In this document: one piece after another, positions 2,042 to 3,895 of the stretch | Layout of the letters: each line of letters opens with the position of its first letter | How positions within the stretch are numbered: the stretch's first letter is position 1 | Assembly (NCBI GenBank): GCA_000002435.2 | Contig: AACB03000028.1 | Direction: 5' to 3' (one strand) | From: Giardia intestinalis | Lineage: Eukaryota | Length of the DNA: 15,856 bases | Position numbers and translations under genes: made by a program | The notes under the pieces: generated by a model | What the model was told of the DNA's origin: nothing | What the model saw: only the letters and a program-made list of their open reading frames with translations | The model's database searches: none

Positions 2042-3895
2042 TGGAGTGTGATATGTACAAAGGCCAGTAATGGACTGTGCACTGCTTGTAAGACAGATAA
2101 CAAGTACATATTCCAGAACAGGGCAGACAAGGTGACCCCTGGTAGTGAGTGCATCCTGTGCTCTGATATCAAGGGAGCGAATGGATATACGGGAGTGGCC
2201 AACTGTCTCAAGTGTACGGCACCAGGGAATGCAGGACCTGCCACGTGTAATACCTGTCAAGAGGGGTACTTCCTAAACAACAAGCTTTGTAAGCCATGCG
2301 AGGGGAACTGTGCCACCTGTGAGACATCGGCGACCCAGTGCACATCGTGTCCAGAGGGGAAGTACCTCAATGGGAATCAATGTACTGATAGCTGTGGTAA
2401 TGATAAGTATGCTGACCCGGAGTCGGGAACATGCAAGGCATGTAGTACGATACACGCAGAGTGCACGGCATGCTCCTTCGACAAGGCCACGGGGAAGCCA
2501 AAGTGCACTAACTGCGGGACCAATAAGACCCCCAGGACGGCCCTCGACGGGACATCGACCTGCGTGGCGAAGACGCTTGAAGGATGCGAGGGCGCTGACG
2601 AGGCCTTATTTATGAAGGAGGACAAAACGTGTGCTCTTTGTAGTGATGTGACAGATTCAACTCTTGGTAACGAAGGAAAGGCCAACTGCAAGACATGTAC
2701 GAAAACAGGAAGTGACAATCCAACCTGCTCAGCCTGTCTCGATGGATACTTCTTTGATAGTGGTACTAGTACATGTACAGACAAGTGTGGTGATAACTGT
2801 GCCACATGCTCTGTTGCTGGTGATCCAAATAAGTGTGAAACCTGCAAGACTGGATACTTCTTAGTAACTACTACAGATCAACAGGGGAAGAAGTGCGTCC
2901 CATGCGATAGCGTAGACGATAAGGGTCGCGAAGGCTGCAGTGTCTGCTCTAACAACGGTGCTTTCAAGTGCACTGACTGTAAGCCTAACTATCGCAAGGA
3001 GGGCAGTACTGGCTCTGTCACATGCACCAAGATCTGTGAAGATGATACTGCCTGTGGAGGAACTTCTGGTGCCTGCGATGCAATAGTGATTGATGATAAG
3101 GGTGTAGAGCATCATTATTGCTCATACTGTGGAGAAGCTAATACGTATCCTATAGATGGGAAGTGTAATAGTGCTAAAGCAAATAATCAATGTGATCAAG
3201 GTGTATGTACACAATGCACTAACAACTACTTCTTGTATATGGGAGGTTGTTACAAGGTTGATACAGTACCTGGACAACATATGTGCAAGACAGCAGCCAA
3301 CGGTGTCTGTACTGCTGTTAATGCCAACAATAGGTACTTCATAGTCCCTGGGGCAACCAATCAGAATCAGTCTGTATTGGCATGTAGCAACTCCCTTGGC
3401 ACACTAGTAGGCACTGGTGATACCTCTAAGGCATATGTGGGGGTAGATGGCTGTTCGGCATGTACGGCCCCAGCAGCTCCATCTGAGACTGGTATGACTG
3501 CTGCTGTGTGTACAGCGTGTACCAACAACAACAAGCCCAACCTGGCTGGGAGCGGGTGCTTCGCATGTACCGTTGACGGATGCTCGCACTGTGGAGCAGG
3601 CGATAAGTGCGAGGCCTGTACCAGTAAAGACCAGAGGCCGAACACAGACGGAACGAAGTGCATCGCCTGCAATATCGACGGGTGCGTCAGGTGCAGCGAG
3701 GAGAACAAGTGCGGCCAGTGTGGGGACGACTACAGGCTGGAGGGTGAGGCGTGCGTGTCCACCAAGCCCAGCGGGGGCAACAGAAGCGGCCTCAGTACTG
3801 GTGCCATAGCAGGGATCTCCGTCGCTGTCATCGCTGTCGTGGGGGGCCTCGTGGGCTTCCTCTGCTGGTGGTTCGTGTGCAGGGGGAAGGCGTGA
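2042..3895 (+). CDS. VSP cassette U2. It is an intact 617-codon ORF with one GGCY motif, ending in the transmembrane helix plus CRGKA. It has no ATG or signal peptide; the ORF opens directly after the TAG at 2039..2041.
   Basis: The ORF track gives 2048..3895, but its M is a GTG codon. The ORF extends to 2042 and the first in-frame ATG is about 180 codons in. The protein is cysteine-rich with CXXC pairs and ends ...[39 protein letters not shown]. Confidence 0.85.
   Translation, partial: WSVICTKASNGLCTACKTDNKYIFQNRADKVTPGSECILCSDIKGANGYTGVANCLKCTAPGNAGPATCNTCQEGYFLNNKLCKPCEGNCATCETSATQCTSCPEGKYLNGNQCTDSCGNDKYADPESGTCKACSTIHAECTACSFDKATGKPKCTNCGTNKTPRTALDGTSTCVAKTLEGCEGADEALFMKEDKTCALCSDVTDSTLGNEGKANCKTCTKTGSDNPTCSACLDGYFFDSGTSTCTDKCGDNCATCSVAGDPNKCETCKTGYFLVTTTDQQGKKCVPCDSVDDKGREGCSVCSNNGAFKCTDCKPNYRKEGSTGSVTCTKICEDDTACGGTSGACDAIVIDDKGVEHHYCSYCGEANTYPIDGKCNSAKANNQCDQGVCTQCTNNYFLYMGGCYKVDTVPGQHMCKTAANGVCTAVNANNRYFIVPGATNQNQSVLACSNSLGTLVGTGDTSKAYVGVDGCSACTAPAAPSETGMTAAVCTACTNNNKPNLAGSGCFACTVDGCSHCGAGDKCEACTSKDQRPNTDGTKCIACNIDGCVRCSEENKCGQCGDDYRLEGEACVSTKPSGGNRSGLSTGAIAGISVAVIAVVGGLVGFLCWWFVCRGKA
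2408..3895 (+). repeat. Copy 1 of a 1488-bp near-identical block A, the 3' three-quarters of a VSP. Copies 2 and 3 are at 9342..10829 and 14344..15829.
   Basis: Identity starts at TATGCTGACCCGGAGTCGGG and runs through the CRGKA stop. Only a few SNPs separate the copies, for example CCAAAG versus CCGAAG. Confidence 0.8.
3800..3892 (+). other. Representative transmembrane helix plus invariant CRGKA cytoplasmic tail of a VSP (U2). The same module ends every unit.
   Basis: It is a hydrophobic stretch of about 26 residues, [25 protein letters not shown], followed by CRGKA and TGA. An NRSG sequon lies just upstream. Confidence 0.7.

Follow-up and report, generated by a model that had tools for sequence, protein, structure and literature searches.

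A conserved coding block at the junction of a putatively chimeric cassette in a Giardia VSP pseudogene array

We analyzed a stretch of 15,856 nucleotides from Giardia intestinalis (contig AACB03000028.1, assembly GCA_000002435.2), hereafter the window, in which stop-to-stop delimitation yields a head-to-tail array of seven full variant-specific surface protein (VSP) units (U1 to U7) and a fragment, all on one strand. Six of the units carry a 17-nucleotide motif that reads in frame as (P/S)LGTLV, and an earlier reading of the window (the original prediction) took this 17-mer for a shared switch point, a micro-homology hotspot used for segmental exchange among the cassettes. We find that the motif is probably an ordinary conserved coding block (N-P-L-G-T-L-V) that serves as an occasional, homology-dependent junction site, one of several, and not a dedicated recombination signal. 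The observation behind the original prediction was real but overstated, and its interpretation was partly right and wrong on the shared hotspot.

Six copies of a 17-mer and the junction in U3

The six predicted sites all carry the 17-mer, but it is exact in only three of them (U3, U4 and U6), and the copies in U2, U5 and U7 bear one mismatch (CCTTGG...; Table 1). With up to three mismatches allowed, 0.07 matches would be expected by chance, and all six copies share an invariant core, GGCACACTAGTA (0.01 expected). Because U2, U5 and U7 are near-identical duplicates (from about 2408/2437 on, over ~1.5 kb; U5 duplicates U2 from 9342 on), the six copies amount to only four independent lineages. 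As had been noted, U1 lacks the motif and reads NPVGAT at the homologous place (AAC CCT GTG GGA GCG ACC), keeping the protein block QSVLACGN-P-x-G.

The motif closes a conserved block, YFxVPGA....QSVLACxNPLGTLV, whose YFxVPGA....QSVLACxNPLGT part lies ~165 residues before the C-terminus in standard-length VSPs. Directly after it comes a loop of variable length (GTGDTS in U2 and U3, DPQGTA in U4, D-T in U6), and beyond the loop a second conserved block, KAYVGVDGCSxCTAP, whose start is encoded by a CTAAGGCATA island. The sixth loop codon overlaps the start of this island, which is the longest run invariant across 10 assemblage-A-type sequences (specified below). The distance from motif to stop codon is 501 nt in U2, U3, U5 and U7 and ~1.7 kb in U4 and U6. 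The flanks had been called strongly diverged; this does not hold for the 60–100 bases upstream of the motif, which are 73–88% identical between lineages.

When U3 was compared with the type represented by U2, U5 and U7, identity climbed from about 60–80% to 98–100% inside the motif. Base 4 of the 17-mer is the last upstream position at which U3 differs from the U2 type, and the next 89 bases are identical. Shifted by a fixed 1887 nt, positions 3398–4335 equal 5285–6222 over 938 nt without gaps and with 16 mismatches, including 726 perfect bases that take in the stop codon and the spacer and reach ~430 nt into the next unit; the right edge of this U3/U4 tract is at about 4336/6223. Since the repeat crosses the cassette border, the identity of roughly 500 bp at the 3′ end described originally is its left part: between U3 and the U2 type it does start at the motif, but it continues past the end of the cassette.

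Upstream of the motif, U3 is similar to L006, a solitary VSP gene of isolate DH (protein P0096; Table 1). In the triplet of U3, L006 and U2, informative sites up to position 5279 side with L006 over U2 by 150 to 11, and from 5291 on the count is 8 to 52. The best breakpoint lies at 5280–5290, inside the motif (Fisher p = 6e-31), where the parental types share 11 nt, the fifth-longest tract of identity in the diverged kilobase (longest, 16 nt). On this comparison of sequences, U3 is a chimera of an L006-like upstream part and a U2-type downstream part, and the predicted segmental exchange at the motif stands for this unit.

A short L006-like patch at 5374–5398 lies within the U2-type 3′ tract of U3; either a second, small conversion or sequence left over from the first parent could account for it. 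We also observed four long antisense open reading frames (221–366 amino acids; minus-strand ends 3404, 5291, 10338 and 12267) that all stop inside the motif, where its second CTA codon reads TAG on the minus strand. These antisense frames stay open because in-frame CTA, TTA and TCA codons are scarce in these genes.

Exchange sites and conservation across VSP genes

If the motif were a dedicated micro-homology hotspot, its DNA would be kept because exchanges preferentially start or end there. We consider this unlikely. The junction of U3 does fall inside the motif, yet the motif marks an edge of only one of the window's four long near-identical tracts, the others beginning at 2408, about 2437 and 7341. 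The identity step that had been placed exactly at the motif is thus found for U3 against the U2/U5/U7 type only, and the U2/U5, U2/U7 and U4/U6 tracts start elsewhere. For U4/U6, BLAST put the edge 16 nt (U4) and 4 nt (U6) past the motif end; we did not count this as a motif edge because, base by base, identity stays at ~80% until 7340 and is near-perfect only from 7341. At the motif itself U4 and U6 are identical over 26 nt (7199–7224), with ~80% identity on either side.

Copying models gave a similar picture. The DNA model, which infers jumps between templates, was run on a codon alignment of 462 nt from 10 assemblage-A-type sequences (U2, U3, U4, U6, L001–L004, L006 and L007) and inferred 37–54 jumps, 4 of which overlap the motif. 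Windows of 17 nt hold a mean of 2.3–3.2 jumps and at most 6–7 elsewhere, and 26–47% of them score as high as the motif or higher. When the same model was run on 105 VSP proteins, coverage by junction intervals at the G-T-x columns reached 24–26 against a mean of 12–15.5 (about 1.7–2x), which would favor a hotspot; however, such coverage is inflated at any invariant block because the placement of junctions is limited by the spacing of informative sites, and the FLYMGGCY, YFxVPGA and AYVGV blocks have similar coverage. Expressed as fractional junction density, PLGTxx is at 1.1–1.3x the average, below the YFxVPGA and PGxxMCK blocks.

In several external VSPs, upstream types and downstream loop types assort across the motif block (U4 versus L001, U3 versus L006/P0022, P0010 versus P0026, P0005 versus P0025), as a hotspot would also have it. 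Even so, junctions were not enriched at the motif in this small sample, and we regard the block as one of several junction zones family-wide, with no clear excess over other conserved blocks.

Structural constraint on the peptide, which the original prediction had set against its own interpretation, was largely borne out. We retrieved 154 VSP-family proteins from assemblages A, B and E (WB, DH, GS and P15); the block QSV[LVI]xC found a match in 113 of these, most of which continue with P-[LV]-G-T; the two residues after P[LV]GT vary (LV, TT, TV, NT, LA, AV, LI and others). In DNA, the CCTWGGCACACTAGTAG form of the motif (CCTWGG...) was found in 4 of 7 external loci, with L002 reading CCATTAGGCACACTAATAG and L006 reading CCTTGGCACAGTGATAG. 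A look for the motif in other VSPs had been proposed as a check, and to that extent it is present there, but the assemblage B locus (L005) encodes the peptide PLGT through different codons (CCC CTC GGC ACG ACA ACA), so that assemblage B keeps the peptide and not the DNA, contrary to what a hotspot would lead one to expect.

Across the 10 aligned sequences, the nucleotide diversity of the 17-mer is among the lowest 0.3–1.7% of 17-nt windows, as is that of the CTAAGGCATA island. A motif at or near the lowest-diversity 17-mer of the region is what a hotspot would predict, but its first four bases, in the Pro and Leu codons, vary (CCC/CCA/TCC; CTA/CTT/TTA). Codon-invariant positions make up 13 of the 50 amino-acid-invariant codons of the alignment. 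We infer that the conservation of the motif reflects protein constraint together with ordinary descent or homogenization within assemblage A, with a small residual signal at the DNA level.

Several points weigh against taking the motif for an ordinary coding block. The DNA sample from outside the array is small, with 7 loci of which 6 are assemblage-A-type. The codons GGC ACA CTA GTA have zero synonymous differences against a median of 0.33, tied for the lowest of 91 four-codon windows, and this would also fit a hotspot. The synonymous conservation that had been proposed as a test outside the array is present in these four codons, but the NKKPN island ties with them and two more islands come close, so that other islands are equally frozen and the stretch is not unique. 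CTA makes up 15% of Leu codons and GTA 18% of Val codons in these genes, a usage that we set aside as evidence because the copies are homologous by descent. Some DNA-level constraint or homogenization may therefore act at the GTLV codons, and with coverage at the G-T-x columns top or near-top, there may be a modest enrichment of junctions at the motif. A last point concerns the window itself, where many frame-breaking single-base indels separate near-identical copies (the CRGRR ending of U4, the frames of U1 and the tail of U7).

These indels would suit an account in which the identity step and the perfect tracts are artefacts of assembly or polishing, with chimeric seams placed in conserved k-mers. 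So would the 726-nt perfect tract, which adjoins patchy differences, and our finding that no protein in a collection of 5.8 billion sequences is near-identical to any unit (best matches 80–92%). Both parental types of U3 nevertheless exist independently, L006 in isolate DH and the U2/U5/U7 type in the window; the same kind of mosaicism is seen between independent assemblies and metagenomes; and reference genomes have been documented to contain both frameshifted pseudo-VSPs and arrays of this kind. We judge artefacts to be quite an improbable source of these patterns.

Zero synonymous variation in the GTLV codons and the minority codons CTA and GTA could also mean that the frozen core is a nucleic-acid-level element, either a small-RNA target or a protein-binding site, with its conservation reflecting regulation. 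The motif core contains two CTAG-centered palindromes, CCTAGG and ACTAGT. CTAG is ~3-fold under-represented in the window (19 sites against ~60 expected), and 9 of the 19 sites are inside motif copies. In addition, microRNA (miRNA) target sites have been published throughout VSP coding regions (PMC3937270). Against this, a search with 99 of the 105 listed miRNAs (Saraiya et al. 2014), covering U2, U3, U4 and U6 to a distance of 25 nt from the motif on both sides, returned no 7-mer seed match and only chance-level 6-mers, and no exact complement of the motif was found in the supplements of PMC3937270. The cassettes themselves are without promoters and start codons and probably silent, and the DNA sequence is not kept in assemblage B. 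Taken together, a regulatory element here appears extremely unlikely.

One published miRNA does match the array at another place: 'miR77' (GTCAACAAGAGCGGCCTCAGCACAGGT) shares ~20 consecutive bases, in sense, with the conserved VNKSGLST coding region just before the transmembrane segment of U4 (8787–8806), which suggests that miR77 derives from VSP-family transcripts.

To return to the reading of the 17-mer as an ordinary coding block, purifying selection on the protein would keep the motif similar between paralogues, P-L-G-T being family-wide, and within assemblage-A-type genes shared descent and/or recombinational homogenization would do so as well. The array itself would evolve by unequal crossing-over or gene conversion between misaligned units, and such misaligned exchange would leave long near-perfect tracts that are indifferent to cassette borders. 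To be resolved, an exchange would need short identity, which in diverged paralogues would be offered by conserved coding blocks. One exchange joined an L006-like body to a U2-type tail and produced U3; the sequences place its resolution in the 11-nt identity at the motif, and that of other exchanges in other conserved blocks.

A more elaborate arrangement can be imagined, in which GGCACACTAGTA and the CTAAGGCATA island 15–30 nt downstream are the homology arms of a mini-cassette around the length-variable surface loop (GTGDTS, DPQGTA, D-T, GTQDNA and others). We think this very unlikely. If it were true, silent array copies could donate the loop alone, or everything 3′ of the loop, to other VSP genes, which would add a recombinational layer to antigenic diversification in Giardia.

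In an AlphaFold2 model of the C-terminal 260 residues of U3 (21-sequence alignment; mean predicted local distance difference test score, pLDDT, 66.5), residues 72–109 (window about 5213–5326; YFLVPGA...QSVLACENPLGTLV...KAYV, including the motif) score below 50, and the flanking CXXC modules 80–92. The least-confident part of the model is the most sequence-conserved stretch of the membrane-proximal region. A sequence search of the PDB returned no match. When JGI metagenomes were scanned with a protein alignment of the motif region (12 sequences), the 18 pattern stretches that matched included no VSP. We also asked whether the block corresponds to motif 1 or 2 of Li et al. 2013; it does not, because those occupy the last 120 residues, downstream of PLGTLV.

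Relation to known recombination in VSP and other antigen genes

Recombination within the last 234–657 nt of VSP genes has been described by Sawyer's test and DualBrothers (Adam et al. 2010, PMC2996952). At 501 nt from the stop codon in U2, U3, U5 and U7, the motif lies inside this zone. That study gives no nucleotide-level junctions and no PLGT block; here the junction is placed to 11 nt and the tract is followed into the next cassette. Pseudogene arrays have further been proposed as a reservoir for conversion (Xu et al. 2020, PMC7641422; Rodriguez-Walker et al. 2022, bioRxiv 10.1101/2022.03.07.483299). The strings QSVLAC, PLGTLV and SVLACGN occur in no paper of the literature library that we searched, and the matches to NPLGT are unrelated to Giardia.

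Mosaic antigen genes are familiar from the mini-cassettes of Neisseria pilS/pilE, the vls cassettes of Borrelia, the homology blocks of Plasmodium var genes and the VSG mosaics of trypanosomes. As in those systems, variable segments of the VSP genes assort between paralogues, junctions fall in short conserved stretches, and the potential donors are arrayed and probably silent. The Giardia array differs in that exchange is deduced from its sequence only. To our knowledge, Giardia VSPs have no expression site, dedicated initiating structure or enzyme, and we know of no nuclease or binding protein that acts at the motif. Switching between VSPs is attributed to epigenetic or post-transcriptional control, not to recombination.

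The window thus offers a nucleotide-resolution example of how a probably silent VSP array may be reshuffled, with a junction resolved to 11 nt and a 0.94-kb tract that runs over a cassette border. It lends support to published proposals that such arrays evolve through unequal exchange or gene conversion; it reveals no new mechanism or special signal, array-mediated recombination in Giardia having already been proposed. It also carries a caution: a single pair of paralogues whose identity steps up at a conserved motif does not amount to evidence for a hotspot.

Architecture of the array

On the plus strand, every long open frame is rich in Cys (CXXC, GGCY) and finishes with a hydrophobic segment and CRGKA; the transmembrane segment with CRGKA was located at 1973, 3878, 5765, 10812, 13929 and 15812, and every unit has GGCY or NGCY. 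The Pfam VSP profile (PF03302) matched U2, U3 and U6 with 132, 123 and 285 bits, respectively (cut-off 31.4; E values 1e-35 to 1e-84). In the databases, the nearest proteins are VSPs of Giardia duodenalis WB, DH, P15 and GS, with best matches of 80% over U6 and, for U1, 92% over its first 210 residues.

Table 1. Units, near-identical tracts and motif sites in the window
Feature	Position	Strand	Remarks
VSP pseudogene cassette array	70–15829	+	stop-to-stop delimitation
U1	70–1990	+	
U2	1991–3895	+	
U3	3896–5782	+	
U4	5783–8906	+	
U5	8907–10829	+	
U6	10830–13946	+	
U7	13947–15829	+	
U2/U5 near-perfect tract (= about 9342–10902)	2408–3969	+	4 differences; left edge unrelated to motif; crosses cassette boundary
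U2/U7 near-perfect tract (= about 14385–15856)	about 2437–3923	+	
U4/U6 near-perfect tract (= 12380–13961)	7341–8922	+	2 differences; left edge 118 nt past motif end
938-nt repeat, copy 1	3398–4335	+	3′ end of U2, stop codon, spacer, first ~430 nt of U3
938-nt repeat, copy 2	5285–6222	+	3′ end of U3, stop codon, spacer, first ~430 nt of U4
U3 segment like solitary VSP of isolate DH (L006, P0096)	4865–5279	+	85–100% identity; only ~55% to U2
U1 homologous site	1408–1425	+	N-PVGAT, CCT GTG GGA GCG ACC; DNA motif absent
U2 motif copy, CCTTGGCACACTAGTAG	3394–3410	+	1 mismatch, S-LGTLV; left edge of 938-nt tract with U3
U3 motif copy	5281–5297	+	exact, PLGTLV; holds breakpoint interval 5280–5290
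U4 motif copy	7206–7222	+	exact; no identity step
U5 motif copy	10328–10344	+	1 mismatch
U6 motif copy	12257–12273	+	exact; followed by shortest loop variant (D-T)
U7 motif copy	15329–15345	+	1 mismatch; U7 duplicates U2
Length-variable loop directly after motif (U3)	5298–5312	+	approximate; first five of six loop codons (5298–5315)
CTAAGGCATA island, start of KAYVGV (U3)	5313–5322	+	other side of loop

Each stop codon is followed by AGTGAAT and then by a spacer of ~50–70 nt rich in GTGATAG, and the 3′ ends of the units have a conserved poly(A) signal. The frame of each unit opens ~50 nt past the previous stop codon with 'WSEICTKA...'. None of the seven units has an in-frame ATG with a signal peptide at its 5′ end, the first in-frame ATG lying 390–790 nt into U2, U3 and U6, and no PyAATGTT initiator was found anywhere in the window. 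Because they are without start codon and signal peptide, we treat the units as pseudo-VSP cassettes; being without promoters and start codons, they are probably silent.

Linear arrays of promoter-less VSPs have been described (Adam et al. 2010, PMC2996952), defined by at least two head-to-tail units with short spacers (~60 nt) and downstream members without initiator, and the units of the window are arranged in this way. Judged by these features, the array is a VSP linear array of the known kind, assemblage-A-like within G. duodenalis. It shares with the Giardia linear and pseudo-VSP arrays the head-to-tail units ~50–70 nt apart, downstream members without initiator, ATG or signal peptide, conserved 3′ ends (CRGKA, poly(A) signal), some frameshifted members and near-identical neighbors that indicate recent duplication, as well as the proposed role of a silent reservoir. 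Nothing essential differs, and no annotated protein is identical to the units.

Single-base indels break the frames between otherwise near-identical copies (8889–8906; 15700–15745; U1, 70–1990; U5, 8969–9301). At the end of U4 (8889–8906), GGGGG is shortened to GGGG, which changes CRGKA to CRGRR; the tail of U7 is frameshifted by a 1-nt loss near 15683; and U1 is split over all three frames, the related WB proteins P0027 and P0079 being open. Such indels could reflect genuine decay of pseudogenes or errors in a long-read consensus.

At ~3.1 kb, U4 and U6 are long; in both, the PLGTLV block is followed by ~1.2 kb of additional Cys-rich sequence and a second GGCY domain. The WB protein XP_001707661.1 (P0035) shares 80% identity with U6 as a whole and 96% with U4 over the last 250 residues. 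U1 belongs to a different VSP subtype (NPVGAT, P0079-like) from the neighboring units and is markedly more GC-rich (0.61 in window 1000–2000, against ~0.50–0.53); the array therefore mixes lineages. The spacers (70–125, 1991–2045, 3896–3950 and others) consist of GTGATAG-like repeats behind a conserved CTTGGGTAGTGAATGCTGTACAATG and differ between units mainly in the number of these short repeats.

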